Notes: generated by a model not told the origin, from the sequence alone. 64,000 nucleotides of DNA from Candidatus Nanoarchaeia archaeon (GCA_035288845.1 DATDZB010000001.1:9092-73091), one strand, 5' to 3'. Positions 2,349 to 55,743 are shown, counted from the first letter of the stretch. Numbers and translations are program-made.

Positions 2349-3562
2349 CTGTGAATAAAAAAGCAGAATTTCAAACAGTCTTAACTGGTTTAATTATATT
2401 TGCAATAATTGTGGGAATAACTTTTTTTATATTTAGGGCAACATCAGATGCTTTTACTAAACAGTCAAATGCCCAAGCAATTAGGTCTTGGGTAAATTTA
2501 AAAACTGCAACAGCAGGAACAGAAATAGCTTTTTCAGATAGTTCAAGTAGACCACCAGTAATTGATCTAGATAAACCTTTAGAAGTAGTTGAAGAAGATC
2601 TTTACTCAAAAGGAAAAGATCCGCCAAAAGCATTCAAAGAAATAGGAGATTCAATGGTAGATTGTTGGTATGCTTTTGAAAGTGGTGAAAAGGATTTTAT
2701 GAATTCAGTAGAGAAAGAAAAATTTTGTTTTTCATGCAGAATAATTAAATTTGAGGATGATATTAAAAAAGATAAAATAGCTCTTAAAGATTTTAATAAA
2801 TTTCTTTATACAAATAGTCCAGGAACAAATAACAAAGGAGAAAGACAAACTTACATGCAAATACTAAATAATGATCCAGAATTAAAACCAGAACCTAGCG
2901 ATCTTGAAAATGATGTAATATTAATTGATGATGATTTTAAAATTATATTTTTTGCAGCATCTGGTAGAGGAATAGTAAATATTGTTTCTAATCTATTAAT
3001 ACAAGAAAATTTAATTCCAGAAGAAGATAAAACAGGTTTTACAACAGAAAAAGGAATATCTAAATTTGATCCAGATAAAACTCTAGAACCAATTGATGAT
3101 GTTGAAGGCTTATCAGCTAGTGAAAAAGCTGAATTAGGTGCAGCTGCATCTGGTGTTGGTGTAGCAAATAAATATTTATTACCCAAACTTGCAGAAGAAA
3201 TATCTCAAGAAGCTGGAAAAGAAACAGCTGCACAAACAGAAAAAATAACAACTAAAAAAGCAATTGAAAAAGTAACAGTAGAAATAGGCAAAACTGGAGC
3301 TCCTGAAAAAATTATTTTTGAAGCTAGTGAAGAAGTAACTGAAAAAGCAGTTGCTCAAAAAGCAATCAAAAAAGCAATTGGAAAAATAATTGCTAAAAAA
3401 GGAGCAGCTATAGGTTTAAAATTTGTATCAAAAGCAGCAGGATGGCCTTTAGCAGTTGCAGGTGCAAGTTATGGTTTGTACGAAGTAGTTAAAGGAAAAA
3501 AACCATTTGTAGCACAAATAATGTTAATAGATTCAGATAAGGTAAATGAAATATGCAATTAA
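2345..3562 (+). CDS. Pilin-like membrane-anchored protein with an Ala/Lys/Glu-rich amphipathic C-terminal region.
   Basis: The N-terminus reads MTVNKKAEFQTVLTGLIIFAIIVGITFFIF. The C-terminal 120 aa are low-complexity AKE-rich with a second hydrophobic segment. Confidence 0.5.
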   Translation: MTVNKKAEFQTVLTGLIIFAIIVGITFFIFRATSDAFTKQSNAQAIRSWVNLKTATAGTEIAFSDSSSRPPVIDLDKPLEVVEEDLYSKGKDPPKAFKEIGDSMVDCWYAFESGEKDFMNSVEKEKFCFSCRIIKFEDDIKKDKIALKDFNKFLYTNSPGTNNKGERQTYMQILNNDPELKPEPSDLENDVILIDDDFKIIFFAASGRGIVNIVSNLLIQENLIPEEDKTGFTTEKGISKFDPDKTLEPIDDVEGLSASEKAELGAAASGVGVANKYLLPKLAEEISQEAGKETAAQTEKITTKKAIEKVTVEIGKTGAPEKIIFEASEEVTEKAVAQKAIKKAIGKIIAKKGAAIGLKFVSKAAGWPLAVAGASYGLYEVVKGKKPFVAQIMLIDSDKVNEICN

Positions 3563-3717: not shown

Positions 3718-4799
3718 TGGCAGACATTTCTATGCCAAAAATGGGAGTTTTTATTTTAGGAATTATAGTTCTAGTTTTAATAATATCAATTTTAATAACA
3801 ACAGGAAATCCAACAATAAAATCATTTAAGAATTCAATAAATAAGCTAATTGGTATTGAAGATAAAGAAAAGAATAATCCAGAAACTGAAACAAACAAAG
3901 TTCCTGCTCATTTCTTAGAATTAGTAAAAAGTTACAAAGAATGTAAATATTCTCCAGATTCAAATTGTTATTGTAAATTATCTTACTCACCAACAACTCC
4001 AAACTCAATAATAGAATTTGAAAGTAATGGAAATAATCTAAACATAAATTTACACACAAACAATCTAATAGATTATAATTCAGTAACAAACAAAGGAGCT
4101 AGTTTACAATCTATACCAAATAAAGAATCTGTAACTTATGAAGAACAAGTAGCAAATCAAATTTTATATTTCAAAAATACTTATTTTTCTCCATCAATTT
4201 CAAACTCACAATTTAATTTAAATGAATTTACTCTAGCACAAAAACAGTATTTAACAAATAATGAGCTATATTCAACAAAAGATGTAAATGGAAAAGATGT
4301 AATAACTTTAAGCGGCGGTTTAGCAATTTATAGGTTTGATCAAGAAAAATCAGCTTTATTTTCGTTTTCAGATGTAAATGGGTTAAAAAAATGTAATTCT
4401 TATCCGCAAATAAATGAAGCAATAGCTGAATTAGAAAGGTTAAGTAATCAAATTAATTCATGCAAAACTCAACAAATTAATTGTGAATATATTCCAAAAT
4501 TACCAAAAGATTATGTAATCTCTATTGAAAATAAAGAATTAGTATTAAAATTCAGAGACAGAGTTTTACAAACTAACAAACCATTTACAGAAAAATTATG
4601 TTTATTCGATGGTTTAGAAGATTCAAAACCAGAAGATGGAAACACATTTTATATATTAAACTTTAATGATCCTATAAAAATGCAAATTTTTTCATTTAAA
4701 GACACGACTTGTTTTTTACCTTTTGATCAAGATCTAATTGAATTAGAAAAATCAAGTCAGCAACGAAGTGTAATAGCAAGATCAATAATAGATAGCTAA
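3717..4799 (+). CDS. Secreted/pilin-like Cys-containing protein.
   Basis: The N-terminus reads MADISMPKMGVFILGIIVLVLIISILITTG. It is part of the pilin battery. Confidence 0.5.
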   Translation: MADISMPKMGVFILGIIVLVLIISILITTGNPTIKSFKNSINKLIGIEDKEKNNPETETNKVPAHFLELVKSYKECKYSPDSNCYCKLSYSPTTPNSIIEFESNGNNLNINLHTNNLIDYNSVTNKGASLQSIPNKESVTYEEQVANQILYFKNTYFSPSISNSQFNLNEFTLAQKQYLTNNELYSTKDVNGKDVITLSGGLAIYRFDQEKSALFSFSDVNGLKKCNSYPQINEAIAELERLSNQINSCKTQQINCEYIPKLPKDYVISIENKELVLKFRDRVLQTNKPFTEKLCLFDGLEDSKPEDGNTFYILNFNDPIKMQIFSFKDTTCFLPFDQDLIELEKSSQQRSVIARSIIDS

Positions 4800-44871: not shown

Positions 44872-46374
44872 TTATTGACGAGTAAGTTTTTCAGTTCTAA
44901 GATCAATTTGTTCAGAAACTATCCCTCTAGCAAAAAGCTGAGTGATAGTACTAGAAGGATAAGCCTCTCCTCTAAGAACACCATCTTTAAAAGTAGAACC
45001 AGGCTTATAAATTAATACAACTAACGCATATGGTTGACTGCCTTTTGTTCCTTCAAAAAGATGTGCACTATTTCCTACCCATCCAAGTCTATTTTTTGTT
45101 TCTACAAGATCTCCAGGATTAGGACGGAAATCACTTAGATTTCCATAAACTCCTATTGTTCTATCTTGGTGCTCAACTACTACAGTTTTACCAAAATTCC
45201 TTTCACCAAGAACAAGAGGTCCAGAGTGTAATACTTTTCCATTATCAATTGGATAAACATCAGTTCCAGTAGGTGCATGATATATTACCATATCATTATA
45301 ACTTGATCTTAATCCATCAATAGCAATAGCTTTTTCCAAGCCACTCTCATTAACATTTAATCTTCTTCCATCTCTAGAAGCTGCTGTTTTTAGAGGTGAA
45401 TTATATTTTAATAAAAAAGGTATATCCCTTACATCTACTAAAATTTGTCCATCTCTAATAAATGCTTCACTTAAATTTATTGTTTTTCCATCTAGATTCA
45501 AAATTTTTCCAGGTAAAGGCTTTGTTGTTTCTTTGTCAAGTTCATTCCATAAATATGCTGCAACTCCACTTGCTAAGACTGCGGCAGCTCCCAAAACTCC
45601 AGCAAGCCGAGCCATTCTATTTGAAGAATGAATAGCAGTATAATTTTCTCTAAAATCAGTTCCATCAAATCCAGGAGTAGGAGTTGAATCAACTGCAACT
45701 TTTGCAGATGTTGTTTGTCGAGTTTGAGAAGTTTGAAGCGCAGAAGTCTGAGTTGAATAAGCTGGTACTTGAGCATGAGTATATGCCGGGTTTAAAGCTG
45801 AAGGCGCAATTAATGTAGAAGGAACTCTAGCAGATGATTTAGAATCTCTTACTCTTCCAGCAGAAATTTCAACAGATTCTTCAAATCTAATATCCATTGT
45901 ACCTACTCTCCCACCTAAAGGTACATTAGCAGCAACCACTCTAGATACCCCACTTTCTTCATTAGGAACTTCAACAAAAAGTTCTTGAGTATCTAATTCA
46001 ACATCATCACCATCTGAAACAGAAGGAGGGAATTGGTTTTTGTCTATTACACTTCCAATAGATCTGTCTGCTTGTTCTAAACTTTCATCTATTTCTCTTA
46101 CTCCTTCTTGCAACATATCTCCCAACTCTGAACTTCTTGCTGATCCTCTAGCAACAGCAGCTAGTTGTTCTTCTAATTGAGCTCGTTTTAATTTTTCTTC
46201 ATGAGGTGACAGTCCTTTTCCTTTTTCAGCATAAATCACTCTCATTTCTTCGTGAGCTCTAGTAACTACAGAAACTTCTTCTCCAGGTTTTTGACCTTCC
46301 AAACCTGCTATTAATTTTTCAGCAACCTGACCACCTTTATTTTTTTTAGAATCGCCCATTTCATCATCACTCAT
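44872..46374 (-). CDS. Bitopic membrane protein with a C-terminal LytM/M23-peptidase-like domain (partly degenerate).
   Basis: There is a disordered acidic N-terminal region and a single TM segment (MARLAGVLGAAAVLASGVAAYLW). The C-terminus has YHAPTGTDVYPIDNGKVLHSG...FGKTVVVEHQDRTIGVYGNLSDF..PGDLVETKNRLGWVGNS. The composition is Gly/Ala/Arg/Pro-rich, unlike the rest of the window. Confidence 0.55.
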   Translation of the reverse strand: MSDDEMGDSKKNKGGQVAEKLIAGLEGQKPGEEVSVVTRAHEEMRVIYAEKGKGLSPHEEKLKRAQLEEQLAAVARGSARSSELGDMLQEGVREIDESLEQADRSIGSVIDKNQFPPSVSDGDDVELDTQELFVEVPNEESGVSRVVAANVPLGGRVGTMDIRFEESVEISAGRVRDSKSSARVPSTLIAPSALNPAYTHAQVPAYSTQTSALQTSQTRQTTSAKVAVDSTPTPGFDGTDFRENYTAIHSSNRMARLAGVLGAAAVLASGVAAYLWNELDKETTKPLPGKILNLDGKTINLSEAFIRDGQILVDVRDIPFLLKYNSPLKTAASRDGRRLNVNESGLEKAIAIDGLRSSYNDMVIYHAPTGTDVYPIDNGKVLHSGPLVLGERNFGKTVVVEHQDRTIGVYGNLSDFRPNPGDLVETKNRLGWVGNSAHLFEGTKGSQPYALVVLIYKPGSTFKDGVLRGEAYPSSTITQLFARGIVSEQIDLRTEKLTRQ

Positions 46375-46480: not shown

Positions 46481-48445
46481 TTATTCTCTAACTTTTTTTC
46501 TAGATCTACTATCAATAAGGTTGTAAGCATTTCCACCAGGCATTATTGATTCAAATGAATTACTAGGAACCTTAGGTCCAGATAATTTAACTCTATTAGA
46601 TTGACTATCTGTTGTAAAAGTAGATCCTTTCCTATAAAGTACTAAAGAAAGGTAAGCAGGACTGCCATCAACAACATCTGCTCCAGTAGTTCCAACCTCA
46701 CCTACTAATTGTCCTCTTTCAATTTTATCTCCTTTAGATACATGTGTTCTTCCTAAATTTCCATATAAAGCAAAATTTCCATCATCTAATTCTGCTATAA
46801 CTGTAGTTCCGTAAGATACTTCATCTTGATAATATCCTGTATGAATAATTTTACCTCTAGATATTGCCCTAATTTGTGTTCCAGCATCAGCAACATAAAT
46901 GCTTCCAGCAGGTCTAGGTCCTTTTTTAAATTTCTTTGCCTTTAAAGTATTTAATCCATGAACACTAGTAAAGTTTATATTTGATCCACCAACCATAACC
47001 CATCCTGTAATTGGAAGATCATATCTTAAAAAGTCTGAAATTTGTTCTGGATCTACTAAAATTTTACCTGAAAAGTCTGCTAAAAAGCTTCCATCCAACG
47101 TATAAAAACCAGGTCCTGTATTATCAATTCTAGGAATTTTAATATATGTTTCTATTCCATTTAATTCTTGGCGAATATCTGCAAGTTCTTTATTTGCAGC
47201 AGCAAGTTTTTTTCTTTCAGATTCATTAGGCATAAATGCTAAAGCTGCAAATGCAGTACCAGCAACTAATCCAGCTAATCCGCCTGTGAAAAGAAACATA
47301 TTTCTCCAAGTATTATTATTTTCTTTTATTCTTGAGTTTAATCTTTCAACGCCAGCTAATCTAGAAGTTTCTATAGAGCCATAAAGTGTATCATGCTCAA
47401 TATCTTTTTGTTTGCTAAAATAACCAGCTATTTTACCAGGTATCTCTAACACACCTTCTAATAATTTTTCAGCCTTCGTATAAAGAGTTGGTCTTATTCC
47501 AGAAACTTCTGAATCTTCTTTTGGTTTTGCTTTAACTTTCTCTGAAACTTCTTCCAACTTAACTTCTGGTTTTTTCATTCCAGTTCTTTTTGAAATTGGA
47601 GTTCCTCCAATAGAAGGTGAAACTGTACCACCATTAAGAACTGTTTCTATAGCTACACCACTTGATTCTGAATTTCCTGCAACATAAGCTATATGTTGAC
47701 TCATATCTGGCAAACTTGGATGTCCTTCAAGTTTAGCATCTTCTAATTGATCGTTAGTGATTTCTAAAGTTGGATCTTTTCTAAGTATTGTAGGAGGAAT
47801 TCTTGGTTGCCTTTGACCTTCATCATTATGAAATGCTGTTGCTTCATCTGCTAATTTTTCTAATAAGCCTTTTCCTTCTTGATCAGCAATAATTCTTTTT
47901 GGATCTATTCTAGTAGAAGGTTTTTCAGGTTTAGCTATAACAGCATCTCCAACTCTGCCAACCCTATGTAATCTTTGACCTAAATATCTTCCTTCAAGTT
48001 CTCTATCAGCTGGCTTATGAATTGAAGCAGCAACATCTGTTTCTTGATCATACCTTTGCATACTTGGAAGAAGTGGAGGAGGTTGATAAGCAGGAACCTT
48101 TTCTTTGCTTGAAGGTGTATCTCTTTTCAATAATGTCGGAACAGCACCATCAGTTCTAGGTTCATAAAATGGTGCTCTATCTTCAGTATGAGCTTGATTT
48201 GGAATAGCTTGAGCAAGCCCATCAGTTTGAAGAGAATCACTTGGCAAAAATTCTCTTTCTGCACGTTCTGTTAAATTTTTCCCTCTTAATGTGCTTAGGC
48301 TCTCTCTATTTGCAGGAACCTTTCTCTCTCTTACAGCATGAGTAACTTCTTTACTTTCTGGATTCATTGGTCTTATAGGTCTTTTAGTAGCCATGAAAAA
48401 AATAGTAGGAATAACTTTATAAGATTTACTATGGCCAAGTAGCAA
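46481..48445 (-). CDS. Paralogous bitopic membrane protein with a C-terminal degenerate LytM/M23-like domain.
   Basis: A roughly 390-aa disordered N-terminal region is followed by a TM segment (FLFTGGLAGLVAGTAFAALAF) and a coiled coil. The C-terminal domain aligns to the M23 consensus but lacks the HxxxD and HxH ligands (SIYVADAGTQIRAISRGKII...YGTTVIAELDDGNFALYGNLGRTHVSKGDKIERGQLVGEVGTTG...YLSLVLY). It shares the ILVDxxxIxxFLxYxLP segment with the upstream paralog. Confidence 0.55.
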   Translation of the reverse strand: MLLGHSKSYKVIPTIFFMATKRPIRPMNPESKEVTHAVRERKVPANRESLSTLRGKNLTERAEREFLPSDSLQTDGLAQAIPNQAHTEDRAPFYEPRTDGAVPTLLKRDTPSSKEKVPAYQPPPLLPSMQRYDQETDVAASIHKPADRELEGRYLGQRLHRVGRVGDAVIAKPEKPSTRIDPKRIIADQEGKGLLEKLADEATAFHNDEGQRQPRIPPTILRKDPTLEITNDQLEDAKLEGHPSLPDMSQHIAYVAGNSESSGVAIETVLNGGTVSPSIGGTPISKRTGMKKPEVKLEEVSEKVKAKPKEDSEVSGIRPTLYTKAEKLLEGVLEIPGKIAGYFSKQKDIEHDTLYGSIETSRLAGVERLNSRIKENNNTWRNMFLFTGGLAGLVAGTAFAALAFMPNESERKKLAAANKELADIRQELNGIETYIKIPRIDNTGPGFYTLDGSFLADFSGKILVDPEQISDFLRYDLPITGWVMVGGSNINFTSVHGLNTLKAKKFKKGPRPAGSIYVADAGTQIRAISRGKIIHTGYYQDEVSYGTTVIAELDDGNFALYGNLGRTHVSKGDKIERGQLVGEVGTTGADVVDGSPAYLSLVLYRKGSTFTTDSQSNRVKLSGPKVPSNSFESIMPGGNAYNLIDSRSRKKVRE

Positions 48446-48492: not shown

Positions 48493-49110
48493 ATGAAACA
48501 ATTAATTGCTGAAGGTGCAGAAGCAAAAATCTACAAAAATGGTTCTTTAATAATAAAAGAAAGAATTCCTAAAAAATACAGAATTAAAGAATTAGATAAC
48601 AAAATAAGAAGGTATAGAACAAGAAGAGAAATTTCTATTTTACAAAAAACTTCTCAATTAATTAACACACCAAAATTAAAACAAGGATCTTCAGAAAGTA
48701 ATTTTATAATAGTTATGGATTTTATTAAAGGAAAAAAACTTGCAGATTGTTTAGATAAATTAAATGAGAAAGAAAGAACAGAAATATGTAAAAAAATAGG
48801 AAAACAAATTGCAGTTCTACATAATAACAATATTATTCATGGAGATTTAACAACTTCAAATATGATTTTAAATAAAAATGAAATTTATTTTATTGATTTT
48901 GGTTTAAGCTTCATAGATCAAAAACCAGAACATAAAGCAGTAGATTTACATTTAATAAAACAAGCTTTAGAAAGTAAACATTATAAAAATTTCGAATCAA
49001 GTTTTAAAAATATCATTGAAAGTTACAAAGAAAATTCTAAAAATTATAAAGAAATTCTAGATAGATTAATAAAAGTTGAATCAAGAGGAAGATACAAGTT
49101 AAAGAATTAA
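48493..49110 (+). CDS. bud32: KEOPS kinase Bud32 (Kae1-associated kinase).
   Basis: It has LIAEGAEAKIY and the catalytic motifs IIHGDLTTSNMIL and FIDFGLS. It is 205 aa. Confidence 0.75.
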   Translation: MKQLIAEGAEAKIYKNGSLIIKERIPKKYRIKELDNKIRRYRTRREISILQKTSQLINTPKLKQGSSESNFIIVMDFIKGKKLADCLDKLNEKERTEICKKIGKQIAVLHNNNIIHGDLTTSNMILNKNEIYFIDFGLSFIDQKPEHKAVDLHLIKQALESKHYKNFESSFKNIIESYKENSKNYKEILDRLIKVESRGRYKLKN

Positions 49111-49163
49111 TTGAAAGATTAGAATTATTAAAAGACACAAAGTTTTATAAAAAGTTACATGAC

Positions 49164-49337
49164 TCAATTAATAGCCCTAAGTAGATATATCTTGGAAGCA
49201 GCCCCGTCGAACATTTACGCAATTGCGTTTTGTGCGGAATCTAGCGGCCCAGGATAGTGGCCTTTGGAGGATTATTCCTAAGAAAGCCATTGACGGCAGA
49301 AAATTATGTCGAATTCAAATCTGCCCGGGGCTATTAA
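49164..49337. other. GC-rich (~48%) element of about 175 nt bounded by perfect 11-bp inverted repeats. It is a candidate structured ncRNA or a MITE-like insertion.
   Basis: ATTAATAGCCC at 49164-49174 is the reverse complement of GGGCTATTAAT at 49327-49337. The internal 10-nt palindrome AGATATATCT lies at ~49180-49189. A GGCC..GGCC hairpin is present. The GC content is far above the local ~28%. Confidence 0.35.
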
Positions 49338-49372
49338 TCTTCTACGATAAAATTTAAAAACAGAAAACAATC

Positions 49373-49756
49373 TTGGATAATATGGGTAGATCAGCATATG
49401 GGGCTAGTTATGAAAGTGTAGAAACAATTCTAAATGGATTTAATCCTCCTGGAAAATTTTATAATAAATTAATGCTTGCAGGTAAAAATTATGCAGATGC
49501 TAGATTAATGTTTGAAATTGCAAGAGATAAAGAATATGGATGGTTTGAGCAAGTTCAAGAAGAATTAGATCAACGTTATACTAATTTTTTAACACAAATT
49601 AATTTAATAAATGATAGATTAAAAAGTAAAGGAAGTACTTATCAAATCCCAACAAATCCATTAAATGTTCATAGATTACTAGAAGGAATAAAAGGAAGAA
49701 TAATACATTCTAGAAGAGCCTTACCTTCTTCAAAAAGTTTAGAAAATGATTTATAA
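49373..49756 (+). CDS. Hypothetical protein, first of two tandem paralogs.
   Basis: It is 127 aa. The C-terminus LEGIKGRIIHSRRA parallels VADIRGHHTIHRKA of the next ORF. Confidence 0.4.
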   Translation: MDNMGRSAYGASYESVETILNGFNPPGKFYNKLMLAGKNYADARLMFEIARDKEYGWFEQVQEELDQRYTNFLTQINLINDRLKSKGSTYQIPTNPLNVHRLLEGIKGRIIHSRRALPSSKSLENDL

Positions 49757-49822: not shown

Positions 49823-50149
49823 ATGGAATATAAAACTTTTTTAGATGGGTTCAAACAAGTTGATCCACAATTTGAATTATACGGGTCTTTTGTTTTATCT
49901 GCTGTTGCTTATTATGAAGCTAGAGTTGCATCTTCAACAGCAAGTGTTGCTGGAGCACATGATTCTATAGCTTTAAATGCTGAAACAGAAAGCTGCTTAA
50001 GAGATCTAAAAATAAGAACTACAGCTATAAATGAAAAATTAGCTGCAAAAGAATTACCAGCAATCCCTTCAAGTGGAGAAGCTTTAGACGATTTAGTTGC
50101 AGATATTAGAGGCCACCATACTATACATAGAAAAGCTTCAAACGCTTAA
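49823..50149 (+). CDS. Hypothetical protein, the paralog of the preceding gene.
   Basis: It is 108 aa and shares the Y..L.LA...Y.EAR and C-terminal I+G..IH.+A motifs. Confidence 0.4.
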   Translation: MEYKTFLDGFKQVDPQFELYGSFVLSAVAYYEARVASSTASVAGAHDSIALNAETESCLRDLKIRTTAINEKLAAKELPAIPSSGEALDDLVADIRGHHTIHRKASNA

Positions 50150-54414: not shown

Positions 54415-54687
54415 ATGACTATTGAAACTACGAAAATGTCTAGTAAAGGACAGATTGTAATTCCTCAAGATATGAGAGAGGAGTTAGGATTAGAAGAAGG
54501 AACATTATTTGTAGTAATAGGTACTAAAGATACAATTTTTCTTAAAAAATTAGAAATGCCTTCAAAAGAGAAGCTAATTAAAGATTTTCAAGAGATTGCG
54601 AAAGAAGGAAGGAAAAGAGCTGAAAAGTTAGGAATAAAATCTGAAAAAGATATTAACGAAATTATTCATAAATCAAGAAAAAAATGA
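54415..54687 (+). CDS. AbrB/SpoVT-family antitoxin.
   Basis: MSSKGQIVIPQDMREELGLEEGTLFVV is a swapped-hairpin motif. It is 90 aa and overlaps the downstream PIN gene by 4 nt. Confidence 0.6.
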   Translation: MTIETTKMSSKGQIVIPQDMREELGLEEGTLFVVIGTKDTIFLKKLEMPSKEKLIKDFQEIAKEGRKRAEKLGIKSEKDINEIIHKSRKK

Positions 54688-55085
54688 AAATTGTTTTTGA
54701 CACAAACATTCTGATCTCAGCAACACTTTGGGAAGGAAGCGTTGCGCAAAAAGTGTTGTTTAAACTTATCCAGGAAGATACTATAATTTACACTTCCAAG
54801 GAAATTCTTGAAGAATATAAAAAAGTTCTCAAAAGAGATTTCAAATACACAGAACAAGAAGTAGAAACAATTTTAGAAAAGATCTTACTCTTTGTTCAAA
54901 TTATAGAACCAAGTGAAAAATTAGATATAATAAAAGCAGATCCAGAAGATAATAAGATATTAGAATGCGCAGTTGCATCAAAAGCAGAATACATTTTAAG
55001 TTATGATAAAAAACACTTACTAATTCTTAAAGAGTTTCAAGGTATACTTATTTTAACACCAGAACAATTCCTAAAAATCACCTAG
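54684..55085 (+). CDS. PIN-domain toxin (VapC-like).
   Basis: The N-terminus MKIVFDTNILISA carries the conserved Asp. It is 133 aa. Confidence 0.65.
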   Translation: MKIVFDTNILISATLWEGSVAQKVLFKLIQEDTIIYTSKEILEEYKKVLKRDFKYTEQEVETILEKILLFVQIIEPSEKLDIIKADPEDNKILECAVASKAEYILSYDKKHLLILKEFQGILILTPEQFLKIT

Positions 55086-55657: not shown

Positions 55658-55743
55658 GGGCTCGTAGTTTAGCGGCTATAACGCAACCTTGACGAGTAAT
55701 CTCAAAGTGGTTGAGGTCGCAAGTTCGAATCTTGCCGGGCCCA
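55658..55743 (+). tRNA. tRNA-Val(GAC) with a 13-nt canonical intron. Phe(GAA) cannot be fully excluded.
   Basis: The acceptor pairs GGGCTCG with CGGGCCC. The D stem pairs GTT with AAC. The anticodon stem pairs CAACC with GGTTG, and the 20 nt between the strands comprise a 7-nt loop plus a 13-nt intron. A relaxed BHB is present (TTGA:TCAA central helix flanked by 3-nt bulges CGA and AGT). The T arm pairs GCAAG with CTTGC around the loop TTCGAAT. The discriminator is A. Confidence 0.6.

Follow-up and report, generated by a model that had tools for sequence, protein, structure and literature searches.

A bud32-adjacent tRNA-Gln(UUG) gene with three introns and a predicted leader copying its acceptor strand

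Transfer RNA (tRNA) genes with several introns have been described from Thermoproteales, where they use relaxed splice motifs and have a stated maximum of three introns per gene (PMC4033280). For DPANN archaea, including Woese- and Pacearchaeota, extra-loop endonucleases and many disrupted tRNA genes have been reported, along with missing tRNAs still to be discovered by hand, and the strict bulge-helix-bulge motif and its relaxed forms have been summarised (PMC5829648). In Nanoarchaeum equitans, the halves of split tRNAs are joined via a complementary leader and trailer that form a relaxed bulge-helix-bulge (PMC4033280). Here we analysed positions 49130-49372 of a 64-kilobase (kb) stretch of DNA (the window) from a DPANN archaeon that is Woesearchaeota/Pacearchaeota-like, a span that an original prediction had flagged as a block rich in guanine and cytosine (GC) within an 11-base-pair (bp) inverted repeat. 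The block is very probably a tRNA-Gln(UUG) gene at 49200-49333 (+) that is interrupted by three introns. Such a gene, together with an inferred role of its leader in splicing, is also with high confidence the best explanation of the block as a whole.

The tRNA-Gln(UUG) gene and its introns

The identity of the block emerges from 80 loci around relatives of the window's Bud32, which were taken from species-representative genomes. Homologues of this Bud32 carry the names Woesearchaeota, Pacearchaeota or Nanoarchaeota. Matches to the element lie just downstream of bud32 in many of these loci, and in about 35 of the 80 the neighbour of bud32 is, according to ARAGORN, a tRNA-Gln (UUG or CUG). Alignment to intron-less genes of 73 nucleotides (nt), as well as spliced alignment allowing long gaps, resolves the block into four collinear exons; the inserts between them follow tRNA positions 10 (30 nt), 37 (17 nt) and 53 (14 nt) (Table 1). 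The 73-mer obtained by splicing in silico is called tRNA-Gln(ttg) by ARAGORN and folds into a normal cloverleaf. It is identical in 61 of 73 positions (84%) to the intron-less, likewise bud32-adjacent tRNA-Gln genes of loci L018 and L065, and in 68 of 73 to the spliced products of L004 and L006. All stems of the spliced product are intact, and its anticodon loop, T loop, 7-bp acceptor stem and A1-U72 pair are canonical; an A1-U72 pair is typical of archaeal tRNA-Gln. The CCA end is not encoded in the gene.

Standard tools pass over this gene. ARAGORN makes no call on the unspliced sequence and finds nothing at the block in the raw window sequence. A covariance scan against Rfam matched no family there, neither at gathering score over the window nor, as a relevant hit, at E <= 10 over 49050-49450. 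Both programs miss the gene because three introns interrupt the tRNA. The original prediction of a structured RNA that stands out by its GC content was thus right in kind, but did not name the tRNA precursor gene that the block most likely represents.

The compositional contrast itself is as predicted, with a GC content of 0.485 over 49200-49333 compared to 0.271 for the window. It amounts to 0.442 over the 172-nt unit enclosed by the inverted repeat (49167-49338) and to 0.383 over the whole flagged span, and the flanking 150-nt windows have values of 0.19-0.25. All other GC islands in the window are coding, except a second tRNA. The inverted repeat, formed by ATTAATAGCCC and its reverse complement, is also present, but its arms had been placed at 49164-49174 and 49327-49337, which is off by 3 and 1 nt. 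Repeat searches lengthen the arm pair to 20 nt at 80% complementarity (49167-49186 and 49319-49338). Among 300 random 243-nt pieces of the window, 7 contained a perfect inverted repeat of 11 bp or more, as did 2 of 300 shuffled versions of the segment; the repeat is unusual, but not extreme. The same searches returned AGCCCCG (49200-49206) and CGGGGCT (49326-49332). This pair had been regarded as an alternative helix; the helix is real, but it is not a mere alternative, as the exon alignment and the spliced product assign it to the acceptor stem of the mature tRNA.

Table 1. Features assigned to the block and its upstream region (positions counted from the first letter of the window)
Feature	Position	Strand	Content and basis
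Putative archaeal promoter, TATA-like (TTTTATAAAAAG)	49143..49154	+	Best match to the matrix of related tRNA-Gln promoters; predicted
Inverted-repeat left arm	49167..49177	+	ATTAAT + AGCCC; repeat searches
Predicted 27-nt 5' leader	49173..49199	+	TATA spacing, predicted pairings, leaders in relatives
Exon 1, tRNA positions 1-10 (AGCCCCGUCG)	49200..49209	+	Alignment to intron-less orthologues, spliced alignment, ARAGORN
Intron 1, 30 nt, between positions 10/11	49210..49239	+	Homology and fit to the bulge-helix-bulge
Exon 2, tRNA positions 11-37	49240..49267	+	Anticodon UUG at 49264-49266; alignments, ARAGORN
Intron 2, 17 nt, canonical 37/38 site	49268..49284	+	Orthologue and spliced alignments
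Exon 3, tRNA positions 38-53	49285..49299	+	Alignments, ARAGORN
Intron 3, 14 nt, between positions 53/54	49300..49313	+	Bulge-helix-loop type
Exon 4, tRNA positions 54-73	49314..49333	+	T loop UUCAAAU, T stem 3' strand, acceptor 3' strand CGGGGCU, discriminator A; orthologue alignment, ARAGORN on spliced sequence
Inverted-repeat right arm	49328..49338	+	Acceptor 3' strand positions 68-72, discriminator, 5 nt of trailer; repeat searches

Archaeal splicing endonuclease acts on two 3-nt bulges that lie on opposite strands, 4 bp apart, and cleaves each of them behind its second nucleotide. The boundaries of introns 1 and 3 that were deduced by homology coincide exactly with such cut sites. At intron 1, the central helix is formed by CCGU (49204-49207, exon nucleotides 5-8) and GCGG (49234-49237), the 5' bulge CG↓A (C9, G10; the arrow marks the cut) is strict, and the 3' side AA↓U11 lies in a 2x3 internal loop, which is a relaxed form. 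The inner hairpin of this intron begins with ACA/UGU. When metagenome contigs were scanned for the intron-1/exon-2 junction, 52 loci with 23 distinct homologous introns were found, and all 23 can form the first three pairs of the inner helix, using A-U, G-C, C-G, G-U and U-A. Over the inner helix, 88 of 92 cells are paired, compared to 64 +/- 3 with permuted partners, and compensatory changes are present.

At intron 3, CGGC (49294-49297; C48, G49, G50, C51) pairs with GUCG (49308-49311). The 3' bulge is AA↓U54, the outer helix UGA/UCA (UUGA/UCAA including a terminal U-A pair), and this conformer is the local optimum. The 5' site lies within a loop, which makes the motif a bulge-helix-loop. In four relatives, the pairing stretch of the 53/54 intron tracks the T stem, with CGGC/GCCG in L005 and L008, CCGA/UCGG in L013, and CGGA/UCCG in L136. 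The helices of introns 1 and 3 therefore covary among relatives, as the original prediction had asked of a structured RNA. Intron 2 has the bulges GG↓A and AA↓A, and its boundary can be shifted by 1-2 nt with the product unchanged. Only three of four pairs are possible in its central helix (C-G, U-A, U-A, and a U x U mismatch). In relatives, the 37/38 intron closes with AA, preceded by 4 nt complementary to C32-U35, giving four of four central pairs. As modelled, the motif of intron 2 is plausible, though not clean. Sequence analysis thus shows which tRNA the gene encodes, where its introns lie and how the splice motifs of introns 1 and 3 are built. No RUGAUGA or CUGA boxes of a C/D-box guide RNA were detected in the introns or the leader.

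The leader and its acceptor-strand copy

The core of the left arm, AGCCC(U) at 49173-49178, is a copy of the 5' end of the tRNA. This partial copy of the acceptor 5' strand starts 27 nt upstream of the tRNA. In the predicted leader, it would be the surrogate acceptor strand, and it is followed by GUAGAU (49181-49186) and by UAUCUUGG (49187-49194), which lies inside or beside the palindrome AGATATATCT that was correctly predicted and is found at 49183-49192. Related genes with a 10/11 intron mostly contain such copies 1-16 nt upstream of the real 5' end, in the forms AGCCCCG, TGCCCCG and AGCCTCG. When at least 6 of 7 matched positions within 40 nt upstream were taken as a copy, it was present in 21 of 31 genes with a 10/11 intron and in 1 of 42 tRNA-Gln genes without it (Fisher p = 7e-10), a comparison that overstates independence because the genes with intron 1 are probably related by descent. 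Shuffled upstream sequence gave an expectation of 0.27 copies. Acceptor-copy leaders are linked with the 10/11 intron in sequence comparisons, and none of the closest Bud32 relatives shares intron 1 or the leader.

The positions of the promoters suggest that these copies are transcribed. In the 42 genes without intron 1, tRNA position 1 follows the TATA-like box at a nearly constant distance of 30-34 nt. In genes with intron 1 and well-scoring promoters, the distance from the box is 29-36 nt to the start of the copy and 46-66 nt to the real position 1. Because of these spacings, intron-1 genes, and apparently only these, would have a transcribed leader that starts at the copy. In the window, the TATA-like box is 29 nt before 49173, and the start is predicted near this position, which is the A of AGCCCU. 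The spacing in genes without intron 1 suggests leaderless or near-leaderless tRNA transcription, as it is known for Nanoarchaeum equitans. If tRNA transcription is leaderless here, the removal of the intron-1 leaders becomes an interesting question. Components of the RNase P ribonucleoprotein have been reported from every archaeal genome examined, and DPANN lack the protein-only HARP form (PMC6380272).

A leader that copies the acceptor strand could matter for splicing, as the motifs of introns 1 and 3 use positions 5-8 of the acceptor and 48-51 of the T stem and hence compete with the cloverleaf. In thermodynamic models, which leave out proteins and co-transcriptional folding, the window's precursor with the 27-nt leader forms the intron-1 helix with p = 0.83, the intron-3 helix with 0.99 and the true acceptor with 0.00. 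In this fold, AGCCCU pairs with GGGGCU (49327-49332; p = 0.98) and GUAGAU with AUCUGC (49319-49324; p = 0.98). Without the leader, the values are 0.00 for the intron-1 helix, 0.08 for the intron-3 helix, 0.97 for the acceptor and 0.92 for the T stem. When all introns are removed and the leader is present, the true acceptor reaches 0.68, the pairing of the leader copy with the 3' strand 0.28 and that of GUAGAU with AUCUGC 0.24. Of 400 leader shuffles that preserved composition, a single one (about 0.3%) yielded both splice motifs, and mutation of either AGCCCU or GUAGAU in silico resulted in the loss of both. For 13 of 28 related intron-1 genes, the intron-1 helix reaches a predicted p > 0.5 when the leader is included; it does so for none of them when the leader is left out. 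The pairing of UAUCUUGG with the D-loop sequence CCAGGAUA, which is seen in the optimal fold, was considered as a further part of the switch, but its mutation in silico was without effect.

The following sequence of events can be proposed. Transcription would begin downstream of the TATA-like box at about 49143-49154, and the leader elements AGCCCU and GUAGAU would pair with the orphaned 3' strands of the acceptor and T stem, thereby freeing the real 5' strand to build the splice motifs. The archaeal splicing endonuclease could then cut the 3-nt bulges that flank the 4-bp helix, and an RtcB-type ligase would join the exons. After splicing, the true acceptor stem would be the more stable one, and strand exchange would lead to the cloverleaf. 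Finally, the leader would be trimmed, presumably by RNase P, the ends would be trimmed, and CCA would be added. The transcription start and the removal of the leader are inferred steps. On account of the folding calculations, the shuffles and the in-silico mutations, we give an even chance to the view that the leader acts in cis as a surrogate strand, a decoy that makes the precursor splice-competent. That surrogate strands in leaders, consisting of an acceptor copy and here also of a T-stem mimic, are a selected general folding switch in DPANN archaea is a tentative generalisation to which we assign not quite an even chance.

The explanation that competes most seriously with a surrogate strand accepts the same three-intron tRNA-Gln, but regards the AGCCC copy and the inverted repeat as having no function at the RNA level, either as the scar of a tandem duplication or as an old start region that is kept by the promoter, the AT-rich extension of the arms being due to chance in a genome of 27% GC. 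We consider this possible, though rather doubtful. It would account for the finding that the outer ATTAAT pairs occur only in the window and is compatible with the 2% of random 243-nt window pieces that contain a perfect 11-bp inverted repeat. A promoter-proximal constraint would fit the TATA distance of the copy, which equals that of tRNA position 1 in intron-free relatives, and the copy without intron 1 in the UUG gene of L008 as well as the 10 of 31 intron-1 genes without a copy also speak for this explanation. A scar or an old start region does not, however, explain why the copy is perfect (7/7) in 15 genes while the neighbouring spacer of 1-12 nt consists of unrelated sequence; a perfect copy beside a freely varying spacer indicates selection on the copy. 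Nor does it explain why the copy is tied to the sole intron whose motif competes with the acceptor stem, or why the native leader surpasses 99.7% of the shuffles in giving both motifs. In addition, substitutions inside the copies are mostly C to U, which keeps the pairing with G, although this is weak evidence.

Several points weigh against the interpretation of the locus as a three-intron gene with a splice-promoting leader. The copy in the window, AGCCCU, is degenerate and matches just 5-6 of 7 positions. The 10 of 31 intron-1 genes without a copy have a CYTTGG leader that is complementary to the D loop, and for these the equilibrium model mostly predicts the cloverleaf and not the splice motif, although co-transcriptional folding could still give the motif. 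The ATTAAT half of the left arm contributes 6 bp in the window compared to 0-3 bp in relatives; it is not conserved and probably lies upstream of the predicted transcription start. With regard to intron 2, the incomplete central helix has to be mentioned, and the canonical conformer is 7.3 kcal/mol above the local optimum in a nearest-neighbour model, due to a competing register. The shared descent of the intron-1 genes and the simplifications of the folding models noted above belong here as well. The support consists of sequence and folding computation, and splicing is predicted. A Pfam scan of the approximately 78 open reading frames (ORFs) in the 64-kb window found no EndA, RtcB or RNase P subunit, which is uninformative; splicing enzymes of the required type are reported from DPANN archaea (PMC5829648).

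Some further candidate structures were considered and rejected. If the upstream AGCCC were the true exon 1 and a fourth intron followed it, the central helix would have to pair GCCC with GCCC, and this intron would shrink to as little as 8 nt in relatives, where the spacers have 1-12 nt. As a general mechanism, removal of the leader by the splicing endonuclease at -1/+1 fails because it needs a 3-nt spacer that starts with U, which is found in 1 of about 19 genes. A helix of the inverted repeat that reaches into the flanks is not conserved in relatives (0-3 bp), and a split or permuted gene is incompatible with four exons that are contiguous and collinear within 134 nt.

Other readings, relatives and neighbourhood

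Three other explanations concern the gene as such. A decaying tRNA pseudogene that has retained junk inserts, with another tRNA-Gln gene in use, is very improbable. The failure of the standard detectors at this locus and the imperfect motif of intron 2 could be taken in this sense, and a second tRNA-Gln(UUG) gene could lie outside the 64-kb window. However, decay would hardly have left the stems, the anticodon loop, the T loop and the A1-U72 pair of the spliced product intact and canonical, or the boundaries of introns 1 and 3 in exact agreement with the bulge-helix-bulge rule. It also disagrees with the compensatory changes in the homologous introns of relatives and with the identity of the DNA sequence in contigs from two independent samples.

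We also see scarcely any room for a separate structured non-coding RNA, about 170 nt long, that has the long terminal helix as its closing stem, be it a reduced form of RNase P or signal recognition particle (SRP) RNA or a member of a new family. The fold of the + strand is indeed strong (z = -4.8, compared to -2.5 for the - strand) and has a closing stem of 12+6 bp, and by eye GGAAGCAGCC resembles the word of SRP helix 8 and some words resemble the ACAGAA of RNase P RNA. Against this stand the lack of any Rfam family in the scans described above and the incompatible structural context of these words. The tRNA exons explain the whole element, which in relatives with fewer or no introns reduces to a plain 73-nt tRNA. 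As candidates in their own right, both known RNAs were rejected: GGAAGCAGCC fits the helix-8 consensus of SRP RNA but has no closing pairs and no model match, and in the case of RNase P RNA, GAAAGCC and GCAGAAAA are adjacent, with no catalytic core between them and no model match.

Least credible of all is the proposed insertion of a mobile element resembling a miniature inverted-repeat transposable element (MITE), possibly arriving with the downstream ORFs: the block shares with MITEs the short compositionally distinct interior within a perfect 11-bp inverted repeat, but this interior is an orthologous housekeeping tRNA that is syntenic across dozens of genomes, the 3' end of the tRNA itself makes up the right arm, the flanks GACTCA (49161-49166) and CTTCTA (49339-49344) contain no target-site duplication, ATTAATAGCCC was found in the 64 kb only at the two arms with one mismatch allowed, no repeat family includes the element, its sole homologues in 140 related loci are the orthologous bud32-adjacent tRNA-Gln genes, and nothing links it to the downstream ORFs.

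Intron positions change fast among relatives. In bud32-adjacent tRNA-Gln genes (L003-L082 and L135-L142), introns occur at 10/11, 15/16, 25/26, 37/38, approximately 45, 53/54 and 59/60, in varied combinations. The closest species representative, L003, whose Bud32 is 74% identical, has the 25/26 and 37/38 introns and lacks those at 10/11 and 53/54. On a Logan contig of SRR3989342 (L136, 2175-2308), which encodes a Bud32 that is 73% identical to that of the window, the orthologous tRNA-Gln(UUG) was detected with apparently four introns, of 23 nt at 25/26, 13 nt at 37/38, 13 nt at 53/54 and 12 nt at 59/60. The last two of these show a central helix of 4 bp as well as 3' bulges of the AA↓U type, the 25/26 intron has 3 of 4 central pairs, and removal of all four introns gives a 73-nt tRNA-Gln according to ARAGORN. 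Four introns are one above the maximum of three quoted in PMC4033280.

L008 contains tandem tRNA-Gln genes (3746-3870, UUG; about 3955-4070, CUG) with different intron sets, namely 25/26 and 37/38 in the UUG gene, and 10/11 and 53/54 in the CUG gene. The acceptor copy upstream of the UUG gene, which has no intron 1, may be a trace of intron loss. Two matches to the intron-1/exon-2 junction are present in L113. In the metagenomic L086 (about 3020-3050) and L120, GGACGCGGAAT(A/C)TAGCGGAAGC directly follows the D arm and repeats the junction word GCGGAATNTAGCGG, which suggests a second related insert or an intragenic duplication.

The genes that flank the block are as originally described, with bud32 upstream. 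The neighbouring genes are archaeal housekeeping genes and encode Bud32, S15, S3Ae, RadA, SRP54, aIF2-alpha and CDP-archaeol synthase. The two downstream ORFs (49382-49756 and 49823-50149, both +) share a weak mutual identity of 22% (E = 1e-4) and have no Pfam match; in one relative, the slot between bud32 and S15 is occupied by a DUF3232 protein and an ORF of 108 amino acids. Upstream of bud32, two adjacent genes for large proteins with a C-terminal Peptidase_M23 domain (44872-46374 and 46481-48445, both -) contain GC-richer stretches that account for other GC islands in the window. A pair consisting of a MazE-like antitoxin and a PIN-domain toxin is encoded at 54415-55085 (+), between S3Ae and a second intron-containing tRNA gene, and PIN/MazE pairs also flank bud32 in the relatives L136 and L138.

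This second tRNA gene (55658-55743, +) is the sole Rfam match at gathering score in the window, where its anticodon loop appears with a 16-nt insertion. In the ARAGORN output, its anticodon is given as 'tgac', with 4 nt and of undetermined type. Judged by eye, the sequence reads as a tRNA-Val(GAC) whose 37/38 site holds an intron of about 13 nt. A TATA-like TTTAAATC is located about 15 nt upstream of its 5' end.

Significance and relation to described systems

The flagged block is a real feature with an ordinary function, that of a tRNA, and an unusual gene architecture that escapes standard annotation. With tRNA-Gln(UUG), an essential gene that both ARAGORN and Rfam had missed is recovered. 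The locus is a concrete case of the unidentified disrupted tRNA genes that are thought to explain incomplete tRNA sets in DPANN archaea (PMC5829648). Missed tRNAs skew inferences about completeness and codon usage of these tiny genomes. A testable rule follows from the data: an intron with a motif that competes against the acceptor stem should be accompanied by a second copy of the acceptor strand, placed where transcription starts. Should the decoy function hold, a novel constraint on the sites of tRNA introns would lie in the architecture of the precursor, besides the specificity of the endonuclease. If the switch is general, it would permit introns at sites such as 10/11 that are otherwise unable to display a bulge-helix-bulge, and it would help to explain three or even four introns per tRNA gene in these lineages.

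The core of the gene is of a known kind, a multi-intron archaeal tRNA, and the acceptor-copy leader appears to be undescribed: a limited literature search, which is no proof of absence, found no description of a leader decoy or of an archaeal tRNA with four introns. Like the multi-intron tRNAs of Thermoproteales and other Archaea, the gene combines a short, protein-spliced intron at 37/38 with introns at noncanonical sites of the D and T arm. Strict and relaxed bulge-helix-bulge or bulge-helix-loop motifs, three introns in one gene, and invisibility to standard finders are likewise shared (PMC4033280). The host differs, as DPANN endonucleases are reported to be alpha4 enzymes with an extra L3 loop and not the crenarchaeal heterotetramer (PMC5829648), and here the 10/11 intron is accompanied by a predicted leader that duplicates the acceptor 5' strand. 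The pre-tRNA-Glu(UUC) of Methanopyrus kandleri is similar in having a 37/38 intron and a D-region intron with a relaxed motif, which need an endonuclease of broad specificity (PMC5829648). It has two introns in comparison to three in the present gene, its D-arm intron is at another position, and no leader device has been reported for it. The split tRNAs of N. equitans, which is also a member of a DPANN lineage, resemble the model proposed for the present locus in that sequence outside the tRNA shapes the endonuclease substrate. In our case, however, the gene is contiguous and collinear, the leader is proposed to sequester a competing strand rather than to form the motif that is cut, and it would be removed by 5' end processing and not by the endonuclease.

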